A stretch of 64,000 nucleotides of DNA from a virus. The translations under genes and the position numbers were made by a program. Shown here piece after piece: positions 32,856-43,082 of this stretch. Numbering within the stretch: the stretch's first letter is position 1; every line of letters starts with the position of its first letter. The notes under the pieces are model-generated. The model was given only the letters and a program-made list of their open reading frames with translations, was not told the origin of the DNA and did not search any database. The stretch lies in the IMG/VR virus record IMGVR_UViG_3300017779_000001; one strand, written 5' to 3'.

Positions 32856-33252
32856 TTTTGAAGATATTTCCAATCTAGTCGAGATAACTTTCCCCGAAAA
32901 AGATGACTTCTTAAAGATAAGGGAGACACTCACCCGTATAGGTGTAGCTTCTCGGAGAGAAAAGGAACTCTTCCAAAGCTGTCACATACTACACAAAAGA
33001 GGTAAGTATTATATCGTACACTTCAAAGAGTTGTTTAAACTAGACGGAAAACCTAGTACAATTGATGAGACAGATGTCGGTAGAAGAAACAGTATCGTAA
33101 TTCTCCTTGAACAATGGAAATTATTATCAATAGTAGATAAAGATAAGGTAAAAGAACCCCTTACACCTTTGTCTCAGATAAAAATTATCCCGTTCAAACA
33201 GAAGAGAGAATGGAAACTCACCTCCAAGTATAGTATTGGAAACAAGGAATAG
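32848..33252 (+). CDS. regA: translational repressor RegA
   Basis: DDFLKIRETLTRIGVAS, LFQSCHILHKRGKYYIVHFKELF.LDG. Confidence 0.97.
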   Translation: MDSFEDISNLVEITFPEKDDFLKIRETLTRIGVASRREKELFQSCHILHKRGKYYIVHFKELFKLDGKPSTIDETDVGRRNSIVILLEQWKLLSIVDKDKVKEPLTPLSQIKIIPFKQKREWKLTSKYSIGNKE

Positions 33253-33260
33253 GAGGAAAT

Positions 33261-33467
33261 ATGTTTCAAGGTATAATAGATTTTGTTATGGGTATATGGA
33301 ATTTGTTGATGATAGTCCCAGTGGTTATCTCAATTTGTTCAGTGGTCGTAGCAATAACACCAACCCCACACGATGATAAGGTATGGGCAAAGGTGTATAA
33401 ATACTTAGAGATTTTAGCACTTGCCGTAGGTAAAGCTAAAGATAAGAATCCATTATTGGATAAATAA
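33261..33467 (+). CDS. small membrane protein (holin-like)
   Basis: Hydrophobic helix then TPTP.DD..W.K.YK..E.LAL. Confidence 0.5.
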   Translation: MFQGIIDFVMGIWNLLMIVPVVISICSVVVAITPTPHDDKVWAKVYKYLEILALAVGKAKDKNPLLDK

Positions 33468-33492
33468 ATATAACTAACGTTAGGAGTATATT

Positions 33493-33768
33493 ATGGAATA
33501 TTTAATTGGAGCAATAGTATTGGGTGTCTTAGGATACGCAGTCTATGAATCATTAAGTAAAAGTGATACCAGTTCTAGTGTAGTACCAGTATCGAAACCA
33601 ACACCTGTAAAAAGGAAAGTTGCAGTTAAGAAAACGGTACCACCAGTTGCAGATTTGAAAACAATGACAAAGCAACAGTTAGTCGAGTTTGCAGACAAGA
33701 ACAACATTAAAGTTGTGAAGTCTAAAACAAAAGCTGACATCATTAGAACTATTTCTTCAGTAAAATAA
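33493..33768 (+). CDS. membrane-anchored protein with HeH/Rho-N-like C-terminus
   Basis: N-terminal TM; L..MTK.QL.EFA....I......TKADII. Confidence 0.55.
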   Translation: MEYLIGAIVLGVLGYAVYESLSKSDTSSSVVPVSKPTPVKRKVAVKKTVPPVADLKTMTKQQLVEFADKNNIKVVKSKTKADIIRTISSVK

Positions 33769-33787
33769 GAAGAACACACTTGAAGAG

Positions 33788-33814
33788 AGGGACTCACATG
33801 AGTCCCTTTTTTTT
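33788..33814 (+). terminator. rho-independent terminator
   Basis: AGGGACTC-ACAT-GAGTCCCT then T-run. Confidence 0.85.
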
Positions 33815-33849
33815 ATCCCGAAGAAACGAGTATTCTTATAAATAACAGT

Positions 33850-34146
33850 ATGGACTTTGTTTTTGAATTGATAAGTGAATTGGGATTTCCTATAGCAGGT
33901 GGAATTGTTATGGGCATTTTTATATTCGTTATCATCAAACAAATACTACAAGGCATTGTAGACCAAATTAAAACACTAACAATGTTCTGTACGTCATTAG
34001 AAAATCGTGCAAGAACCATGTCAAATGAAATGACAAAGATAGACATGTTAGTCTCGTCAGCTCTCCAACTAAGACCCGACATTGAAAGGGTTGCTAGGGC
34101 AGAGAACTTTATAGAAGATGGGAAACTAGATGTAAGGAGAGACTAG
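33850..34146 (+). CDS. membrane protein A of curli-associated pair
   Basis: ELISELGFPIAGG TM then coiled coil; 5 nt after TATAAATA. Confidence 0.65.
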   Translation: MDFVFELISELGFPIAGGIVMGIFIFVIIKQILQGIVDQIKTLTMFCTSLENRARTMSNEMTKIDMLVSSALQLRPDIERVARAENFIEDGKLDVRRD

Positions 34147-34433
34147 TGGAAGAAGTAAACATAGTCGAACTTATATCACAGTATGGATTTCCTATCGTCA
34201 TGGCAGTTGGTTTAGGTTACTTTATATATTATGTGTGGTGGTTTATTGGTGAACACATAGAACCCGAAATTGAAAAGATGCATATAGCATTGATTCGTGT
34301 AATCGACCAAACAAGGATGTTAGACCAAGACCTTATACGACTGAAAACAAAAGTGGACGTTGTGTTAGAATATAAAGAAAATGAGAAAAAAAAGGGAAAA
34401 GGTAAAACGAATGAAAAACATAATTCTAATTAG
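34146..34433 (+). CDS. membrane protein B of curli-associated pair
   Basis: ELISQYGFPIVMA TM, similar to the previous gene; GTG start. Confidence 0.65.
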   Translation: MEEVNIVELISQYGFPIVMAVGLGYFIYYVWWFIGEHIEPEIEKMHIALIRVIDQTRMLDQDLIRLKTKVDVVLEYKENEKKKGKGKTNEKHNSN

Positions 34434-34890
34434 TGGACTTCTTTTATTCAGTATAAGTGCAAGTTCTGATATAGTTCACAAATTCAAGAACCCCAGTTTC
34501 AGTGGGGTAGGTACTGGAGCTCATTATCTCACAATTGAGAATCAAGAAAGCTCAAGAAAAAAAACAATTAAAGATGCTCTTGAAGCTGCAAGGAAAGCTG
34601 CATTAAGAGAAGAAGAAAATTCTACACTTGCAAAATTTATTAGAAATTTAGAATCAAGAATTTACTCACAGTTATCAAAACAATTAGTAGAATCAATGTT
34701 CAGTAATGATAATGCATCAAACTTTGGTTCATTTGTTTTGGAAGGAAGCACTATAACATGGGAAGTTATCACTGGTGCAGATGGAACAGATTTTATTAAA
34801 ATGACCATTGTTGATAGTGACGGAACAACAACAGTTATAGAAATACCTGTAGGAACAGGTAACTTTGGTCAAGACCCCGATGGAGGGTAA
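34411..34890 (+). CDS. csgF: curli assembly protein CsgF-like
   Basis: Signal peptide, then IVHKFKNPSFSG (CsgF NPxFxG), F.RNLESRIYSQLS.QL. Confidence 0.8.
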   Translation: MKNIILISGLLLFSISASSDIVHKFKNPSFSGVGTGAHYLTIENQESSRKKTIKDALEAARKAALREEENSTLAKFIRNLESRIYSQLSKQLVESMFSNDNASNFGSFVLEGSTITWEVITGADGTDFIKMTIVDSDGTTTVIEIPVGTGNFGQDPDGG

Positions 34891-34891
34891 A

Positions 34892-35857
34892 GTGGTACGA
34901 TGTTTGCATGTATTACTAAGTGTCATTTTAATGACGGGGTGTGCATCATTTCCACAATGGAGTGAGAACCCCCAAGACTGTAATGACACAGCAGGGAAGT
35001 ACACTGAAGGTTTTAATAGACACTTGCAAATGGGTATACAGAAATCCATGGCACGAAAGTATATTTGTGTCGACAACCCTGAGGTAGTAAGTCTACCATC
35101 GTATATAGAACTTTTAGAACTACCACCAGCAAAAGACAAACCAGTCGTTGCAGTATATAATTTTTTAGATAAGACTGGTCAAAGAAAAGCAAGAGAAGGT
35201 ATTGCAGACTTTTCAACTGCAGTCACACAGGGTGCAACCGAAATGGTTATTGATGCACTCAAGACAGCAGGTGGTGGAACATGGTTTCGTGTTGTGGAAA
35301 GAAATGGTATAGACAATCTCGTAAGAGAAAGACAAATCATTCGTTCTGCAAGACAGGATTATGCAACAGCAACTGAGACATCAGCAAAGGGTGTACAACC
35401 CTTATTATTCGCAGGAATAATTATTGAAGGTGGTGTTATAGGTTATGATACAAATCTTATGTCAGGTGGACGAGGCGCACGAACACTAGGCATAGGATAT
35501 GCAAAACAATATCGTAAAGATGTTGTTACTATAAGCATGAGAGCAGTATCTGTTCTCACGGGTGAAGTATTATTAAACGTTCAAACACGTAAGTCTGTAT
35601 TGTCTTACGGTTCTTCAGGTGACATTTTTAGATTCATCGAACAGGGAACACAACTTGTTGAATATGAGGACGGAGTGGGAAATAATGAATCAGTGACGTA
35701 TGCAGTACGTACAGCTATTGAAGCTGCAGTACTGGAATTAATATACCAAGGACACGATAGAGGTTTTTGGAAAATAGAGGATGGACATCGTCATCCCCAC
35801 CAATCTAATGGGACTAACGATTTACATTCAACAAAAGAGGTAAACGAAAATGAATAA
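34892..35857 (+). CDS. csgG: curli secretion channel CsgG-like lipoprotein
   Basis: Lipobox LMTGC; VAVY.F.DKTGQRK, FSTAVTQG, WFRVVER.G.DNL..ERQIIR, IIEGG.IGYDTN; start uncertain. Confidence 0.92.
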   Translation: MVRCLHVLLSVILMTGCASFPQWSENPQDCNDTAGKYTEGFNRHLQMGIQKSMARKYICVDNPEVVSLPSYIELLELPPAKDKPVVAVYNFLDKTGQRKAREGIADFSTAVTQGATEMVIDALKTAGGGTWFRVVERNGIDNLVRERQIIRSARQDYATATETSAKGVQPLLFAGIIIEGGVIGYDTNLMSGGRGARTLGIGYAKQYRKDVVTISMRAVSVLTGEVLLNVQTRKSVLSYGSSGDIFRFIEQGTQLVEYEDGVGNNESVTYAVRTAIEAAVLELIYQGHDRGFWKIEDGHRHPHQSNGTNDLHSTKEVNENE

Positions 35858-36590
35858 ACTAATTAGTTTAGTATTATTAATGTCGACAACATTCGTATTC
35901 GCACAAGCCACTGATGATAATGAAATTAAAATCACACAATCAGGTGATACGTTGAAACTTTACATCGACCAAATCGGTTTTGGTAACAAAATCGGTGGAG
36001 ACAATGGTTCTTCAGGTAGTGTATCAAGTGCAATGGCAATTACTGGTAGTTCTTTAGAATTTGATTTAGATTTCAACGGTAACAATAATGTCCTATTCGG
36101 GCCTGTTACTGCAGACAGTTCTATTTACAAGTTAGATTTCACAGGAGATTCTAACGTAATAGACTGGAAAATTGGTGATACAGGTAGTGCAGATTCATCG
36201 GACATCAACTTTGATGTAACAGGAAGTAGTAATACTTTTGATATAGACCAAGGTAGTGTAGCGAGTTCCGAATCTTTAGATGCAGACTTAATATTAATCG
36301 GTAGTTCAAATATTTTTGATATAGATTGGGAAGCAGATAACTTGACATGGAATTTTGATGTCACTGGTTCTTCTAATAACATAAACACTTTACAGAATGA
36401 TGCTAGTGACTCTTCACTAACATTCACTCACGATGGTGATAGTGCAGATGTAGACATCAATCAGATGACAGGAACTTGTCCGACTGGTGTTACAGGGTGT
36501 TCTTCACCAACTAGTATTATAACACTAGATGTTACAAGTGATAATGCAGTTATTCAAATCAATCAAAAAGATTCAGCTAACGATTCTTAA
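35850..36590 (+). CDS. secreted curlin-like beta-repeat protein 1
   Basis: Signal peptide; DNEIKITQSG...IDQIG..N; ~23-aa G.SN.F.I repeats. Confidence 0.7.
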   Translation: MNKLISLVLLMSTTFVFAQATDDNEIKITQSGDTLKLYIDQIGFGNKIGGDNGSSGSVSSAMAITGSSLEFDLDFNGNNNVLFGPVTADSSIYKLDFTGDSNVIDWKIGDTGSADSSDINFDVTGSSNTFDIDQGSVASSESLDADLILIGSSNIFDIDWEADNLTWNFDVTGSSNNINTLQNDASDSSLTFTHDGDSADVDINQMTGTCPTGVTGCSSPTSIITLDVTSDNAVIQINQKDSANDS

Positions 36591-37692
36591 CATTTTATTA
36601 TTCAGTGGGGTTGCATTAAGTAACCCCATTGGTGATGTTAAAGAATTGACAGGATTCGCAACACTCCTACGCGAAGATAATCCACAAGATATAAACGAAG
36701 GGTACGAAGTAGTCTTATACGATGAGGCACGTACTGGAGACGGTAGAATGTTAATAGAGTTCTTAGACGAAGAAGAACTTGCACTTACTGAACACTCCAT
36801 AGTGTATATCGATGAAGCATACTATGACCCCGACCCATCAAAATCTAAGATGGCAATCAATATGGTTCAGGGTACAGCTCGATTTGCATCAGGAACTGGA
36901 AGTAGAATACGTAAATCAAACATAAGTGTAACAACACCTACAGCACAAATTGCCATTAGAGGCACAAATTTTACAACAACAATAGATGAATTAGGTAGAA
37001 CACTTGTGATATTACTACCTGATGAAGATGGTGTGACACCTTCAGGTGAGATAGATGTATCAAACGAAGGTGGAACAATTACACTTAGTAAAGCTTTTGA
37101 AGCAACAATGGTTTCAACAGTTGAGTCACCTCCAAGTAGAAGTGTCGTTATAAATAATATCACCACATCATTAATCGACAATATGTTTATTGTAAATCCC
37201 CCCGAGGAAGTACAAAAGGTTGTCGAAGAAGAAGCAATCAGTGACTTGGAAGAAGACCAAGGAATATTAGACATAGACTTTCTAGAGTTTGATGACCTTG
37301 AGAGTGATTCTCTTGCAGACACAACAGTTGATTTAGAATACTCAGAATTAGATATCGACATGTTAGATGTTGATTTCTTAACCGACCTACTAGATGTGGT
37401 CGAAGAATTAGAAAGGACTACACTCAGTCTTAGAGACACACAAACACAAACAGGAAGTGGTGCATTCAACATACAGGGTGCAACAACAGGATTTAACAAA
37501 GATTCACAATATAATGTTTTTGTTCAAGATGGAGATTTATATCTCTTCAGAAACGTAAACGGAGTGATTGAGATAATCATTGCACAAGGTGGAAGCGGTT
37601 ACGTTGAAACGATTGTTGATGGATATGAGGGAGTTATTCAATTTGGTAACGGTGACCCTAGTATTGAAATATTTATCAATCAGTCAAACTAA
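36544..37692 (+). CDS. FecR-domain protein
   Basis: Signal/TM; D..RTG.GRM.IEFLD...L.LTEHS, V.TPTA.IAIRGT.F; acidic D/L-rich C-terminus. Confidence 0.8.
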   Translation: MQLFKSIKKIQLTILNILLFSGVALSNPIGDVKELTGFATLLREDNPQDINEGYEVVLYDEARTGDGRMLIEFLDEEELALTEHSIVYIDEAYYDPDPSKSKMAINMVQGTARFASGTGSRIRKSNISVTTPTAQIAIRGTNFTTTIDELGRTLVILLPDEDGVTPSGEIDVSNEGGTITLSKAFEATMVSTVESPPSRSVVINNITTSLIDNMFIVNPPEEVQKVVEEEAISDLEEDQGILDIDFLEFDDLESDSLADTTVDLEYSELDIDMLDVDFLTDLLDVVEELERTTLSLRDTQTQTGSGAFNIQGATTGFNKDSQYNVFVQDGDLYLFRNVNGVIEIIIAQGGSGYVETIVDGYEGVIQFGNGDPSIEIFINQSN

Positions 37693-37706
37693 ATATAGGA
37701 GAATAT

Positions 37707-37847
37707 ATGTTAAGTAAGATAAAGGAATGGCACGAGAACTCTTTATACAGTTTTCAAAAAGGGTTACGACTAGATGACTATCACATGATGTGGTTAGCAT
37801 TTGGTAAAGGTGTCCTTTTGGTATTATTATTACAATGGATATTTTAA
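37707..37847 (+). CDS. 46-aa membrane peptide (not in ORF track)
   Basis: AGGAG RBS; MLSKIKEWHENSLYSFQKGLRLDDYHMMWLAFGKGVLLVLLLQWIF. Confidence 0.6.
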   Translation: MLSKIKEWHENSLYSFQKGLRLDDYHMMWLAFGKGVLLVLLLQWIF

Positions 37848-38563
37848 CTAAATTGAAGTCAGTATTTGTGGGGATGTTAATCATCCCCATGATTACTATA
37901 GCTGACGATAATGAAATCAATATCACACAGACAGGTGATAACTTTCAGTTGGGTATTGACCAAATTGGATATGATAATAAGATACAAATGTTAGATATCA
38001 ATTCATTCATTACTGCATCAAGTTTAGATATGTATTTGGTACAAGTAAATACGAATGCAAATGCTAATCCTAATACAATTACTTTTGACGAAATCAGTGG
38101 TTCGAATAATCAAATGAAACTTGCACAAGGAGTTGCATGGACTACACTTGATTCTGATACTGATTTAACTTGGTATGGTGATAGTTATGAGTCAGGTGGA
38201 CATGAGATAGATATTACTCTTTATGGTGACTACAACAAGTTAGCAGTCCAACAAACTAATCAGACAGGTGCAACAGATGGACATGATTTTGATTTACACT
38301 TAGCTGGGGATTATAACGAAGTTAAAATTAAACAACAAAGTAATGGTGCAAAAAATATAGGTCTTACAATTTACAATGACTATAACGATGTATTCATTCG
38401 TCAAAAAGGTAATGGTGCTACTCATAATGCAAACATAACTCTTGACGGATTATACGGTACCGATTTAATCCTAAAACAAATGAGTACTACAAATCAAACA
38501 TACAATCTAAGTCTTGATTGTATGACAGTTGGTGGTTGTGGAGTGACAGTTACACAGGAATAA
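37835..38563 (+). CDS. secreted curlin-like repeat protein 2
   Basis: Signal peptide; DNEINITQTG...IDQIG; GDYNKLAVQQ, GDYNEVKIKQ, NDYNDVFIRQKG repeats. Confidence 0.75.
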   Translation: MDILTKLKSVFVGMLIIPMITIADDNEINITQTGDNFQLGIDQIGYDNKIQMLDINSFITASSLDMYLVQVNTNANANPNTITFDEISGSNNQMKLAQGVAWTTLDSDTDLTWYGDSYESGGHEIDITLYGDYNKLAVQQTNQTGATDGHDFDLHLAGDYNEVKIKQQSNGAKNIGLTIYNDYNDVFIRQKGNGATHNANITLDGLYGTDLILKQMSTTNQTYNLSLDCMTVGGCGVTVTQE

Positions 38564-38565
38564 TT

Positions 38566-38877
38566 ATGAATTTAGATATGTTCGGAAATCCTATAGGAAC
38601 TAAATACCCAGGCGAGGAGGGTTGTCCTGAAGGTATGATGTGTATTCCTGAGAATGAATTCCACTTGATGCTTACAGATAATAATATGCAATATACTGTG
38701 GAAGGAAATATTGAACCTGCTCAAGGTGATGCTGAAGCGATTATTGATTTTACAAAGGATTTACTCTTTTTAGATATTAGTGTAATCCTGAATATGGCAG
38801 TTCCCTTAACGATATTTGCAATATATGGTTTAACAATTTACGCTGCAGTAAAATACATTCAAAAGAGATTAAGTTAA
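38566..38877 (+). CDS. hypothetical protein with C-terminal TM
   Basis: ORF between curlin 2 and iscU. Confidence 0.6.
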   Translation: MNLDMFGNPIGTKYPGEEGCPEGMMCIPENEFHLMLTDNNMQYTVEGNIEPAQGDAEAIIDFTKDLLFLDISVILNMAVPLTIFAIYGLTIYAAVKYIQKRLS

Positions 38878-39281
38878 TGGCATATTCACAGAAAGTTATA
38901 GACAGATTCGAGGGTGTTCTCAATGCACCCGAACAATTTTCAGTTGGTAGATTCGACCCCAACGACCCAAACGTTGCAACAGGAATGACAGGAGCCCCAG
39001 CATGTGGTGATGTCATGAAACTGCAACTCAAACTTGACGAAAAAGAGATGATAATAGATGTCAAATTCAAAACCTATGGATGTGGAAGTGCAATTGCAAG
39101 CAGTTCGTTGTTCGTTGATTTACTCAAAGGTAAAACGATTGCAGAAGCAAAACAGATTAAAGATAAAGAGATTGCAGAAATCCTTGAATTACCTCCAATC
39201 AAATTACACTGTTCAGTCCTTGCAGAAGACTCAATCAAAAAAGCAATAGAGGATTGGGAATCTAAGAACGAGAATGTATAG
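38877..39281 (+). CDS. iscU: Fe-S cluster scaffold IscU
   Basis: GAPACGDVMKLQ, FKTYGCGSAIASSS, LPPIKLHCSVLAED. Confidence 0.95.
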   Translation: MAYSQKVIDRFEGVLNAPEQFSVGRFDPNDPNVATGMTGAPACGDVMKLQLKLDEKEMIIDVKFKTYGCGSAIASSSLFVDLLKGKTIAEAKQIKDKEIAEILELPPIKLHCSVLAEDSIKKAIEDWESKNENV

Positions 39282-41136
39282 TTGGAAAACTGTATTAGTA
39301 ACGATAAGTTTACTAGTCGGTATTAAAGTATGGAACCCATACATCGTAGAGAATATACAATGGTCATGGTTTGATTTTTTACATCAACAACACAAAGAAG
39401 TACAAGTAGACGACATTGTTCTAGTCAACATAGATGAGAAATCTATAGAGAAGTATGGTCAATACCCGTTTCCTAGAAACGTTTATGGTGATACACTATG
39501 GGACACTCATCACACTAACACCCATGTTTTTTCAATTATTTTTTCAGAACCTGATAGGTTCTCAGGAGATGAAGTATTTGCAAATGGATTAGTCAATCGA
39601 TTATCTATTTTAGGAGCTGCACCCACTACACAAAAAGATACAGGTTCTGCACCATATGTTAGAACAAGTGTGTTTGGTGGTGGAGATATTACACTTCATG
39701 CATGGAATTACGATGGAATTTTAAATCCCGTCTCTACGCTAATGGATAACACATATGGTGTGGGGGTAACGGTTGCAACTCCATCAATCTCAGGAACACC
39801 AAATTTTGACGGTACAGTACGTTCTGCACCACTCCTAGTCACTGCAAATGACGTAGTGTATCCGAGTGTAGTTTTAGAGACTCTCAGAGCATTTTATGAC
39901 CAACCCAACTACCAAACTAGAGTTACACCCGAGACAGGTATTGAGTGGATTAGAATGGGTAGAGAGAAACCTATTGAGACAACATCCACTGCAGATGTAA
40001 TGATATCTTACTGGAATAAGTTTCCCTCTATTTCTTTTGCAGACTTACCTAGTTCTGATGTTCAGAATAAGATTCTAATCTATGGTCTAACTGCAGAGGG
40101 TTTGAATAATCCAGTTTCAACCCCAGTGGGTGTAATGTATCCCCACGAAGTTCAAGCCTCTCTTTTACAAACCGTTTTGACAGGAGTTCAAATACAACAA
40201 TCCTACTATCTTGAATTCTTAGAGATTGTTCTTTTAATGACAGTCCTTCTAATGACTCTTCTTGTGGTCTACAACGTTCCCACAACTCTTGCGGCTCTAG
40301 TCTCTTTAGGAATAGTAGGTCTTCAGGTGTATGGGGGATATTGGTTATGGACTTCAAGTTACGTTCTTTTCGATACCTTCTTTTCATCGGTAGCCTCCTT
40401 GATAGTTTTTGGACATGCATCTTTCAACAAATACTATAAAACATTTCAACTCAAAGAACAAATTAAGAAACAGTTCCAAAAGTATTTATCCCCCGACATG
40501 GTTGACCAACTTGCAAAAGACCCATCAAAATTAAAGTTAGGTGGAGAGAGAAAAGAAATGACTTTCATGTTCATGGACATCTGTGGATTTACTCCAATCA
40601 GTGAACACTACAAGAACAATGATGACCCCGAAGGATTAGTTGAATTGGTAAATAAGTTTTTGGACATGCAAACTAAGATAATCCTAAATAACAATGGAAC
40701 CATTGACAAGTATATGGGCGACTGCATCATGGCATTTTGGAATGCACCTTTGGATTGTCCCGACCATTCAGAACTTGCAGTCAAATCGTCAATAGAAATA
40801 CTCGAAGCAACCAAGGAACTTAATGAAGAACTTTCTCCTCTCAATCTACCTCCTATTAATGTCGGCATCGGCATTTCCACAGGAACCTGTATTGTCGGGA
40901 ACATGGGTTCAGAACTTAGATTTGACTATTCCGTCATTGGAGATGCCGTCAACCTCGGTGCTAGACTCGAAGGCCAAACGAGAAATTATGATGGGGTTGA
41001 CGTGTTGTTATCAGAAGAAACATATAGACAGTGTACATCAAGAGCATTTTCTGAAGTCGATAGAATACTCGTTAAAGGTAAATCCGAAAAAGTTCGTATC
41101 TTCACTCCACTGGAACTTTCAAGAAAGACCATCTAG
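39274..41136 (+). CDS. CHASE2-domain class III adenylate/guanylate cyclase
   Basis: N-terminal TM, IVLVNIDEKSI..YGQYPFPR (CHASE2), 3 TMs, FMDICGFT, IDKYMGDCIMAFWNAP, DYSVIGDAVNLGARLE, VKGK. Confidence 0.92.
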   Translation: MYSWKTVLVTISLLVGIKVWNPYIVENIQWSWFDFLHQQHKEVQVDDIVLVNIDEKSIEKYGQYPFPRNVYGDTLWDTHHTNTHVFSIIFSEPDRFSGDEVFANGLVNRLSILGAAPTTQKDTGSAPYVRTSVFGGGDITLHAWNYDGILNPVSTLMDNTYGVGVTVATPSISGTPNFDGTVRSAPLLVTANDVVYPSVVLETLRAFYDQPNYQTRVTPETGIEWIRMGREKPIETTSTADVMISYWNKFPSISFADLPSSDVQNKILIYGLTAEGLNNPVSTPVGVMYPHEVQASLLQTVLTGVQIQQSYYLEFLEIVLLMTVLLMTLLVVYNVPTTLAALVSLGIVGLQVYGGYWLWTSSYVLFDTFFSSVASLIVFGHASFNKYYKTFQLKEQIKKQFQKYLSPDMVDQLAKDPSKLKLGGERKEMTFMFMDICGFTPISEHYKNNDDPEGLVELVNKFLDMQTKIILNNNGTIDKYMGDCIMAFWNAPLDCPDHSELAVKSSIEILEATKELNEELSPLNLPPINVGIGISTGTCIVGNMGSELRFDYSVIGDAVNLGARLEGQTRNYDGVDVLLSEETYRQCTSRAFSEVDRILVKGKSEKVRIFTPLELSRKTI

Positions 41137-41425
41137 AGCTTTGATGGCAGTGTATTACACACTGCAGATTGCAGACATTTGGACGACACAACGGGGAATG
41201 GATTATGAATGTGTGTACGAACAGAATCCTTTACTACCTAGAGTCCCAAGTACAGAAAGATTAATACTACACAAAGTTGTATTCACATCACCTGTGTGGA
41301 TACTAGACAAAGAAAATCTTCTCAAAAAAGGAGATGTTATATTCCCTACCATGTTAATGACATATGTTATACACCATAATTTAAAAGTTATAGATAGAGC
41401 ATCTAAAAGATGTAACAAAAGGTAA
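40823..41425 (+). CDS. secreted/membrane protein overlapping the cyclase
   Basis: AAGGA RBS, signal peptide MKNFLLSIYLLLMSASA; C-terminal ADIWTT..G......EQNPL. Confidence 0.55.
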   Translation: MKNFLLSIYLLLMSASAFPQEPVLSGTWVQNLDLTIPSLEMPSTSVLDSKAKREIMMGLTCCYQKKHIDSVHQEHFLKSIEYSLKVNPKKFVSSLHWNFQERPSRALMAVYYTLQIADIWTTQRGMDYECVYEQNPLLPRVPSTERLILHKVVFTSPVWILDKENLLKKGDVIFPTMLMTYVIHHNLKVIDRASKRCNKR

Positions 41426-41458
41426 CACTAAATAATATACAAATTATGGAGATATATT

Positions 41459-41665
41459 ATGCCAGTGAAATTCGGTAAAACTTCTGTACAGATTGACAGA
41501 AATACAAAAAAGAAAACCATAGTTCATGATTACATGAAAACTAAAACTAATCAAGAACTCATGGATGCATACAATAAACCAGTAATTCCTAAACTTCGTC
41601 AGAAGGTAAAGAATGAAATAGTGAGAAGAAGTAAAAAAGGTCTTGCAAATATAGTATTCAGTTGA
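41459..41665 (+). CDS. small basic hypothetical protein
   Basis: GGAG RBS; K/R-rich. Confidence 0.6.
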   Translation: MPVKFGKTSVQIDRNTKKKTIVHDYMKTKTNQELMDAYNKPVIPKLRQKVKNEIVRRSKKGLANIVFS

Positions 41666-41788
41666 TATAATGTCTAAATACTAATGTGACACACAATTGT
41701 CACATAATAGAAACAATTACGACACAAAGAGTAAGTAACGAAAGTGAAGTCCATGTGTCAGATAGTTTCAACATAACAGGAGATAACA

Positions 41789-41899
41789 ATGCGACATTAT
41801 GCATCATTGTCTGCCGAGTATCTAAGGACGCAAGCAGACCGACTACACAACCTCATGAAATGTGGTAGATTACAGAATGTAATCAGAGAAATTTATTAG
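41789..41899 (+). CDS. 36-aa peptide downstream of a structured leader
   Basis: AGGAG RBS; MRHYASLSAEYLRTQADRLHNLMKCGRLQNVIREIY. Confidence 0.55.
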   Translation: MRHYASLSAEYLRTQADRLHNLMKCGRLQNVIREIY

Positions 41900-41960
41900 G
41901 TTTTTTTCAAAAAACCCCTTGACTTTTATGTAAAAGTCCCTATATAATATAGTATGAGAA

Positions 41961-42016
41961 CTTCAAAAGAGCTCGGGTATTGACCTTCGGGAAGATATAT
42001 CTTCAAAAGAGCTCGG
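41961..42016 (+). repeat. 16-bp direct repeat in the hsp20 leader
   Basis: CTTCAAAAGAGCTCGG at 41961 and 42001. Confidence 0.9.
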
Positions 42017-42060
42017 TTCTCTACACCTAATGCCCAGTAGGGGTTAGGTATTAACATTAA

Positions 42061-42078
42061 CTTGCTTTTAAAAAGGAG
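42061..42078 (+). promoter_or_regulatory. ROSE-like RNA thermometer hairpin
   Basis: CTTGCTTT pairs with AAAGGAG (SD) leaving a bulged G, upstream of a small heat-shock gene. Confidence 0.55.
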
Positions 42079-42084
42079 AAAATT

Positions 42085-42498
42085 ATGACAAGTATAGACG
42101 CTTTCGGTCGCTTCAGACCACTAACCATCGGATTTGATAGACTCTTCGAAGACCTCGACAGAGTAACAACTCAATCAGATAATTACCCACCATACAACTT
42201 AATCAAAGTAGATGAAGATTCATTCTTTATTGAACTTGCAGTAGCAGGATTTGCTAAAGACGAGATATCGATTGAGTTTAAAGATAGAGTTTTAACTATC
42301 ACAGGTGATTCATCCCCAAGAGTCGATGGTGTCGATTTTGTTCATAAGGGAATCTCAGAAAGAAACTTCATTAGAAAATTCACACTTGCAGAACATATTG
42401 TTATCAAGAGTGCAAAAGTAACCAATGGTTTACTAGTGATTTCACTGGACAGAGAAATTCCCGAAGAAGAAAAACCTCAAGTAATTAAAATTAAATAA
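42085..42498 (+). CDS. small heat shock protein Hsp20 (IbpA-like)
   Basis: IGFDRLF, NYPPYN, IELAVAGF, HKGISER.F.RKF.LA, NGLL.I.L.R.IPEE.KP. Confidence 0.95.
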   Translation: MTSIDAFGRFRPLTIGFDRLFEDLDRVTTQSDNYPPYNLIKVDEDSFFIELAVAGFAKDEISIEFKDRVLTITGDSSPRVDGVDFVHKGISERNFIRKFTLAEHIVIKSAKVTNGLLVISLDREIPEEEKPQVIKIK

Positions 42499-42572
42499 GA
42501 AAACGTATTGACTAAATACACGGATAGTAGTATACTAGAGTATATTAACGTATATATTATGGAGACTTAATT

Positions 42573-43082
42573 ATGAGTTTTGTTACAGCAGGAGAAACTA
42601 GAATACCGAAGACCCATCTCACACAGAGAGTTGAAGATAACTTTGATGTTATCAACACTCAGAAAATGTTTGAGACAGGTAAGAATGTATTCTTCACTTT
42701 GCCAGGCGCATACACACCAACTTGTTCGACTAGACAACTTCCTCGTTATGAAGAATTATTCGAAGAGTTCCAAGGTAAGGGTGTTGACAACATTTACTGT
42801 TTTTCAGTGAATGATGGTTTCGTTATGAACGCATGGTCAAACGACCTAAATATAACAAAGGTCAAGATGATTGCAGATGGAAATGGTTCCTTTGCAAATA
42901 AACTTGGTATTTTGGTTGATAAATTAAACTTAGGATTTGGTAAACGTGCATGGAGATGTGCAGCTGTCGTTGAAGACGGACTAATCACTCAATGGTATGA
43001 AGAGCCTGGTATCTCTCAAGATGCTAGTAATGACCCATACAAGGTTACTAACCCTGAAAACATCCTTTCAAACTTGGAGTAA
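42573..43082 (+). CDS. peroxiredoxin (Prx5-type)
   Basis: LPGAYTPTCS, SVNDGFVMNAW, DGNG.F, GFG.R.WR. Confidence 0.92.
   Translation: MSFVTAGETRIPKTHLTQRVEDNFDVINTQKMFETGKNVFFTLPGAYTPTCSTRQLPRYEELFEEFQGKGVDNIYCFSVNDGFVMNAWSNDLNITKVKMIADGNGSFANKLGILVDKLNLGFGKRAWRCAAVVEDGLITQWYEEPGISQDASNDPYKVTNPENILSNLE

Follow-up and report, generated by a model that had tools for sequence, protein, structure and literature searches.

Curli genes were described in pelagimyophages by Zaragoza-Solas et al. in 2020 (PMC7029224), a pore acting in lysis timing was proposed for the Methylophilales phage Melnitz by Buchholz et al. in 2022 (PMC9004378), and the whole cluster, listed as "HK" (histidine kinase), CsgF, CsgG, CsgA/B, FecR, a second CsgA/B and "AC" (adenylate cyclase), was delineated in silico in podophages and myophages by Wittmers et al. 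in 2022, together with its global distribution and its expression in metatranscriptomes (PMC9599517). This module, a type VIII secretion system (T8SS), makes up ~0.1% of assembled ocean viral proteins (PMC9599517) and corresponds to gp011-019 of pelagiphage HTVC008M and gp97-104 of Melnitz. Here we analyse a version of it from an uncultured T4-like marine myophage, carried on a 64,000-nt stretch of DNA (IMG/VR record IMGVR_UViG_3300017779_000001; the whole stretch is referred to as the window). Twelve genes on the + strand (33850-41425) form one packed run, their ends overlapping or nearly abutting (Table 1). Two membrane paralogs, CsgF, CsgG, curlin-like protein 1, a FecR-domain protein, a 46-aa transmembrane (TM) peptide and curlin-like protein 2 make up the 5′ part, followed in the 3′ part by a small anchored protein, IscU, a CHASE2 cyclase and a 200-aa overlapping open reading frame (ORF).

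This block is nearly certainly a member of the published pelagiphage T8SS/curli module, with which it shares gene set and order, the lack of CsgE and a T4-like marine myophage carrier; carriers of the module are T4-like myophages and podophages of the HTVC023P type. The window encodes the gp44/gp62 clamp loader and RegA just upstream of the run; its nearest records belong to the Kyanoviridae and its closest cultured relatives are HTVC008M and Melnitz. Both carry the same block, in agreement with an earlier reading of the window made from its letters alone (the first-pass annotation), which had cited csgF/csgG in HTVC008M. That reading had also taken the combined system as uncharacterised, and here it has to be corrected, the csgF-csgG-curlin-FecR-curlin-AC region having been published in 2022 (PMC9599517). 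Relative to HTVC008M and Melnitz, the large uncultured clade that includes the window adds a gene overlapping the 3′ end of the cyclase gene, and the window itself adds the IscU insert. Neither of these, nor CHASE2, is mentioned in the text of PMC9599517, and in the published papers FecR is taken as iron-related and the small proteins are called histidine kinases. The module is thus already in the literature; new here are the CHASE2 identity of the cyclase, a bacterial operon combining both arms, leading proteins that are not kinases, and the overlapping gene.

Families were assigned to window ORFs by Pfam and PHROGs profile searches, and five predicted assignments (CsgF, CsgG, FecR, IscU, and CHASE2 plus cyclase) are firm. 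Checks with these profiles and of the promoter and terminator placed every element listed in the first-pass annotation where it had been put, including the terminator and exact late promoter ahead of the run. By its sequence the operon encodes a CsgG outer-membrane pore with a CsgF cap, two Sec-exported curlin-type repeat proteins, an exported FecR-fold protein and an inner-membrane CHASE2 class IIIb cyclase with a complete set of catalytic residues. A trans-envelope device joining secretion to cyclic AMP (cAMP) synthesis is the likely working model. Through CsgG and CsgF, the curlin-like proteins would reach the infected-cell surface; in the periplasm, the CHASE2 domain would have the FecR-fold protein as its partner, as in stand-alone FecR plus CHASE2 cassettes of Alphaproteobacteria and by analogy with the outer-membrane protein NsrA, which feeds the CHASE2 cyclases of S. 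meliloti; and the state of the pore, fibre or envelope would set cytoplasmic cAMP synthesis. Taken whole, module membership plus such a coupled device is the explanation towards which we lean, by a narrow balance; its coupling step, from pore or fibre state to cAMP, is tentative and stops short of probable, and the sensing of contact or superinfection put forward in the first-pass annotation is conjectural.

The two arms travel together in related viruses. An IMG/VR scan with the cyclase gave at least 595 related loci, of which 80 were kept and the 48 with at least 5.6 kb of upstream flank were used. All eight core genes were present in 48/48 of these loci, so that co-conservation of FecR and cyclase with csgFG, whose absence the first-pass annotation had named as a ground for abandoning its reading, was found throughout. 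Core order by best hit was identical in 46/48; the two exceptions arose because the query for the second curlin matched the first. Starting from CsgG instead, FecR and cyclase also accompanied it in 6/6 phage-like contigs with sufficient flank. Several contigs carrying the full module (our loci L083-L086, L159-L166, L168, L171-L173 and L175) had been binned into bacterial metagenome-assembled genomes (MAGs) labelled Sphingobacteriales, Rhodobacterales, Synechococcus, Saprospirales, Flavobacteriales, Polynucleobacter or Pirellulales; these are most likely mis-binned phage contigs.

Transcription signals recur along with the genes. None of 200 shuffles of the terminator hairpin preceding the run folded as well, and a GC hairpin followed by a T-run lies at the equivalent site in most related loci. 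The T4-type late-promoter motif of the window, TATAAATA, is exact in 21 of 37 loci, and (T/C)ATAAATA or CCTAAATA stands at the same 13-nt offset in nearly all (~35) of them. Because promoter motif and preceding terminator recur across loci, we conclude that the block is an autonomous late unit. Rfam at the gathering threshold gave no match in window positions 33000-43000, a range that takes in 41673-41899, marked in a separate first-pass note as a glutamine-riboswitch-like leader.

Table 1 Predicted features of the module and its flanking signals in the window (aa, amino acids; E, E-value; dG, folding free energy).
Feature	Position	Strand	Basis
Intrinsic terminator, hairpin + T-run, closing the upstream unit	33782..33814	+	fold dG -19.7 kcal/mol, z -6.1
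T4-type late-promoter motif TATAAATA	33837..33844	+	13 nt before first ATG
Small membrane protein 1, 98 aa, one TM helix + coiled coil	33850..34146	+	phrog_18771 E 1.9e-24
Small membrane protein 2, 95 aa, paralog of protein 1	34146..34433	+	phrog_18771 E 2.1e-25
CsgF homolog, exported, probable start 34411	34381..34890	+	Pfam CsgF E 6e-16; phrog_35372 E 6.7e-41
CsgG lipoprotein pore, probable start 34880	34865..35857	+	Pfam E 7.7e-51
Curlin-like 1, conserved copy, exported, ~7 repeats	35850..36590	+	Curlin_rpt 17.8 bits, below cut-off
Exported FecR-domain protein, probable start 36544	36529..37692	+	Pfam FecR E 2e-9; phrog_37870 full length E 3e-59
46-aa peptide, C-terminal TM helix, accessory	37707..37847	+	hydropathy; 25/48 loci
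Curlin-like 2, hypervariable copy, exported, ~6 repeats	37835..38563	+	hhalign to curlin-1 family
Small protein, C-terminal TM anchor, probable start 38566, accessory	38518..38877	+	hydropathy; 20/48 loci
IscU/NifU_N Fe-S scaffold, auxiliary	38877..39281	+	NifU_N Pfam E 2.9e-39 over 3-132; phrog_8429
CHASE2 sensor/class IIIb adenylate cyclase, 620 aa	39274..41136	+	Pfam CHASE2 E 4.4e-30, Guanylate_cyc E 8.6e-18, phrog_35576 E 1e-179
Overlapping gene, 200 aa, +1 frame of last ~105 cyclase codons	40823..41425	+	comparative open frame

The secretion arm resembles E. coli curli (PDB 4uv3, 6l7a) in its CsgG lipoprotein, in the NP-x-F-(G/S)-G segment of CsgF and in secreted short repeats rich in Q, N and G. 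The phage module differs in being without CsgE, CsgC and CsgD, in its longer and more irregular repeats (22-34 aa) with weak Curlin_rpt matches, in that its amyloid formation is putative, and in its extra FecR/cyclase arm. CsgF of the window reads as a signal peptide followed by a mature N-terminus with FKNPSFSG. CsgG matches the E. coli CsgG structures at E 1.6e-49 with its lipobox (LMTGC) aligned; at the constriction the Phe is retained and the Asn is replaced by Asp.

Each curlin-like protein begins with a Sec-type signal peptide and comprises 6-7 repeats, 22-34 residues long. Homology between the two extends over almost the whole protein (hhalign probability 99.1%, E 1.2e-18). Identity across loci is 44-89% for the first and 28-76% for the second. 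Their relatives in Melnitz, HTVC008M and viral contigs pass the Curlin_rpt profile; relatives of the first curlin score 20-26 bits, and homologs reach 22-33 bits. The second curlin of HTVC008M (gp018; L001:6649-7974) is a 441-aa protein in which a PA14 domain (E 2.7e-6) precedes the Curlin_rpt repeats (33 bits). PA14 is a domain of the adhesin or carbohydrate-binding type, and its presence there suggests that the hypervariable second curlin may be a surface adhesin.

In the signalling arm, the FecR-domain protein has an N-terminal signal peptide, with the FecR domain itself following from about residue 31. AlphaFold2 (AF2) predicts a beta domain, an acidic disordered linker and a small C-terminal beta domain, with a predicted local distance difference test score (pLDDT) of ~80-88 for the N-domain and <50 for the linker (217-311). 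The N-domain model superposes on the periplasmic domain of PupR (6ovk; Z 15.2, root-mean-square deviation 2.5 over 136 residues) and on BDI_1681 (4m0n; Z 13.8). FecR and PupR are anti-sigma regulators of TonB-dependent cell-surface signalling, and what the phage protein has in common with them is this periplasmic FecR-domain fold; it differs in carrying a signal peptide where the regulators have a cytoplasmic anti-sigma domain and a TM helix. Neither a sigma factor nor a TonB-dependent transducer was found among the window neighbours of fecR. The C-terminal domain, which ends in I-x-I-N-Q like the curlins, was considered as a further curlin repeat and rejected (hhalign probability <3%).

By its domain content the published "AC" of the module is a CHASE2 sensor cyclase. 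One TM helix is followed by a periplasmic CHASE2 (14-327), three further TM helices and a cytoplasmic catalytic domain (427-605), with hydrophobic segments at 7-25 and ~312-390. Among solved structures it is closest to adenylate cyclases (CyaB 3r5g, and 6fht), and alignment to both retains all six catalytic residues, namely the two metal Asp (D435, D483), the substrate Lys and Ser (K479, S553) and the transition-state Asn and Arg (N560, R564), as expected from the intact catalytic motifs reported in the first-pass annotation; the predicted pattern is that of a class IIIb enzyme using ATP. The window cyclase is 43% identical to that of HTVC008M and 35% to that of Melnitz. Melnitz-type cyclases (Melnitz L002:7983-10034; also L168 and L173) are longer (~680 aa) and end in a helical extension of ~70 aa that is not in the 620-aa enzyme of the window; the overlapping gene is absent from those loci. 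Within the window gene, codons 279-368 (40111-40380) show fewer synonymous differences than the rest (0.19-0.36 vs ~0.5 elsewhere), in a stretch that runs from the last part of CHASE2 through the TM helices and where a 123-aa antisense ORF lies at 40049-40420. A hidden gene is considered the less likely cause: the low synonymous variation and the scarcity of +2-frame stops fit the codon composition of TM helices, to which the drop is provisionally attributed.

FecR-domain proteins have been described alongside CHASE2 sensors (PMC5192318, PMC5498481), and in S. meliloti the CHASE2 cyclases receive an extracellular protein signal via the outer-membrane beta-barrel NsrA (PMC13001267). We found a FecR gene followed by a full-length CHASE2 cyclase gene, without T8SS genes, in Rhizobiales, Devosia, Phyllobacteriaceae and Jiella loci. 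FecR plus CHASE2 is a stand-alone alphaproteobacterial cassette, which bears out the association in proteobacteria that had been cited for the window. The described cassettes (cyaD1-smc02178-smc02177 with NsrA in S. meliloti; BiofilmReg LysM-FecR with a CHASE2 kinase in Burkholderia) have, like the phage module, an exported FecR-domain protein beside a CHASE2 sensor. They differ from it in having no T8SS genes within ~9-10 kb, in cyclases that are 27-38% identical, and in an output that goes to known CRP-type regulators, whereas five near-complete genomes of phage relatives had no PF00027.

The arms are likewise found apart in a wider survey of Alphaproteobacteria: no FecR or cyclase gene lay within 10 kb of csgG in ~66 csgG loci, and no csgG or csgF was found at the 20 best CHASE2-cyclase loci. 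According to PMC9599517, FecR and AC do not occur within bacterial T8SS operons. This statement needs qualifying, because one operon of a Henriciella sp. MAG (L167:6466-12489, on a 396,755-bp contig) holds both, in the order csgF, csgG, a gene for a 504-aa curlin-like protein, fecR and a CHASE2 cyclase gene. It is surrounded by ordinary metabolic genes in a chromosomal context with a G+C content of ~0.5. Its CsgG is 53% and its cyclase 39% identical to those of the window; it differs from the window in having no small TM paralogs, no overlapping gene and a single curlin. In the CsgG tree, Henriciella CsgG groups with phage CsgGs (support 0.999) and apart from 43 other alphaproteobacterial CsgGs, its union with the clade of the window reaching only 0.857, and in the cyclase tree the Henriciella enzyme branches immediately outside the phage clade (95/96). 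Among 301 genomes of the order to which Henriciella belongs, an ortholog of its FecR was found nowhere else, one weak match apart. Both trees and this rarity indicate that the block passed whole between phage and bacterium, in either direction.

Several points weigh against a coupled secretion and cAMP device. The curlin-like proteins of the window score 17.8 and 13.8 bits against Curlin_rpt, below the Pfam cut-off of 20.7, and a profile of the curlin-1 family matched no solved structure among PDB sequences. CsgE is absent: it had not been recognised on first inspection, no window ORF matches it in Pfam, and PF10627 was not found in five related genomes, with a positive E. coli control. The contact between FecR and CHASE2 is drawn from gene neighbourhood alone, and no cAMP receptor or cyclic-nucleotide-binding domain (PF00027) was found in the five near-complete phage relatives. 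Podophages often carry the module without the cyclase and the second curlin (PMC9599517), so the two arms are separable, and Melnitz infections showed no clumping (PMC9004378).

The alternative that survives best, which we consider unlikely, is that two functions merely travel together: surface fibres made by CsgG/CsgF and the curlins, serving aggregation ("sibling capture") or as a shield against superinfection, and a separate reprogramming of host physiology by the FecR/CHASE2 cyclase through cAMP, with no signal between them. The aggregation and superinfection ideas, like that of import, are already in PMC9599517 and PMC7029224, and it is in this two-function form that hypotheses have been published. 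It would account for the absence of FecR and cyclase from T8SS loci, which is the rule in the ~66 alphaproteobacterial csgG loci, for the commonness of FecR plus CHASE2 without T8SS, for the frequent lack of the cyclase in podophage versions and for the adhesin-type PA14 domain in the second HTVC008M curlin. It fits poorly with the strict order in 48/48 myophage loci, with the occurrence of the block as a single operon in a bacterium too (Henriciella), with Melnitz cultures free of clumping, and with the position of fecR, which lies between both curlin genes rather than beside the cyclase only.

The two leading paralogs bear on another reading, already proposed in outline for Melnitz (PMC9004378), in which the CsgG/CsgF pore, together with the leading holin-like proteins, governs how permeable the envelope is or when lysis occurs, with the sensor cyclase supplying information on the envelope. 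The published "histidine kinase" label of these paralogs is not supported: no invariant His was present in 28 aligned members, as HisKA would require, no Pfam kinase family matched at E up to 1, no HATPase_c catalytic domain was found, and the proteins are 95-98 aa in size. Weak hints, offered as leads only, all point to small holin-like families. Small membrane protein 2 has a weak match to the holin family phrog_4898 (E 2.9e-4, 18 residues only), YvrJ was matched by 3/28 members, and among named Atlas clusters YvrJ and Holin_BhlA come closest, at 0.84-0.87. Among 50,697 cultured-phage records, the paralogs occur only in HTVC008M and Melnitz strains, directly 5′ of csgF, and they are not in the Henriciella operon; they are phage-specific additions to the module. 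A lysis-timing role would agree with late expression of the unit, judged by its promoter motif, with the build of the paralogs, which is that of BhlA/YvrJ-type small holins, and with a Phage_holin_T search, run without a positive control, that found no T-type holin in five relatives. It is nonetheless improbable: every holin hint lies below accepted thresholds, no endolysin or spanin gene adjoins the unit, a ~1-nm pore in the outer membrane is not enough to cause lysis, and two conserved secreted repeat proteins are left unexplained.

A broader proposal would merge these elements into one envelope sensor, coupled to secretion, by which the phage times how infection ends. FecR would read the pore or fibre and switch the cyclase, cAMP or the cyclase itself would act on the holin-like paralogs, and the four-Cys product of the overlapping gene would modulate the response; an operon of the Henriciella type would be ancestral and have been captured whole. 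We regard this as a speculative extension with little probability.

More doubtful still is an ungated uptake pore, in which a CsgG channel without CsgE would admit nutrients or cofactors to the periplasm and so feed phage replication. This role was proposed in PMC7029224 and PMC9599517 and agrees with the absence of CsgE; it leaves the conserved CsgF, the two curlin-like proteins, FecR and the cyclase unexplained, and porins are present in the outer membrane of the host in any case. That the repeat proteins are virion fibres and their neighbours unrelated morons, despite the late promoter and the position of the module next to tail and baseplate genes in HTVC008M and Melnitz, is scarcely credible, because both proteins start with Sec-type signal peptides; they are also homologous to curlin-repeat proteins and embedded between csgG and the cyclase gene in every locus.

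Like the leading paralogs, the overlapping gene is absent from the Henriciella operon. We conclude from comparison of loci that it is a real gene, because the +1 frame stays open in 58/60 distinct cyclase genes where ~7 stops would be expected (mean 7.0 in synonymous-codon reshuffles of the last 95 cyclase codons, with an open frame in ~1e-4 of trials). In the same 60 genes, +1-frame stops per 30-codon bin fall to 0.02-0.13 over the last 90 codons, against 0.9-4.5 elsewhere. A conserved ATG lies 290-320 nt before the cyclase stop, preceded in the window by AAGGA 5 nt upstream. The gene was found in 66/69 loci; it is not in HTVC008M, Melnitz or any cultured phage. The possibility that the 200-aa ORF is a mis-call of a 94-aa gene after the cyclase stop was ruled out by comparison of loci. 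The N-terminus of the protein is variable across loci and always resembles a signal peptide, and four Cys are invariant. Residues 100-200 are modelled as a three-helix bundle (AF2 pLDDT >93); a fold search with the model returned generic helical bundles only (Z up to 6.8), and likeness to DUF5658 is weak (E 0.0057, below cut-off). This four-Cys periplasmic protein is a phage-specific addition.

The remaining genes of the run are accessory. The small anchored protein matched no Pfam or PHROGs family. IscU, which retains three cluster-binding Cys in conserved motifs, had been counted as part of the system on first inspection; its gene adjoins the cyclase gene in just 8/48 loci and lies ~10 kb away in 4, so that it is better regarded as a movable auxiliary insert outside the core. 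Among cellular proteins in GTDB genomes, those of SAR86 are closest to the phage IscU (62-63%); others were also returned, with no Pelagibacter among them, perhaps a weak hint of the origin of the gene or of the host. Downstream of the module, at 42085-43082, the window encodes a small heat-shock protein of the Hsp20 family (E 2.5e-17) and a protein of the redoxin/AhpC type (E 1.7e-21).

With this module, hosts of the SAR11/OM43 type are given an envelope machine that they themselves lack. If FecR-CHASE2 does read the pore or fibre, the module would provide a compact, phage-borne model of signal input to CHASE2, which is poorly understood, and would be a case in which a virus installs a surface structure together with its sensor.

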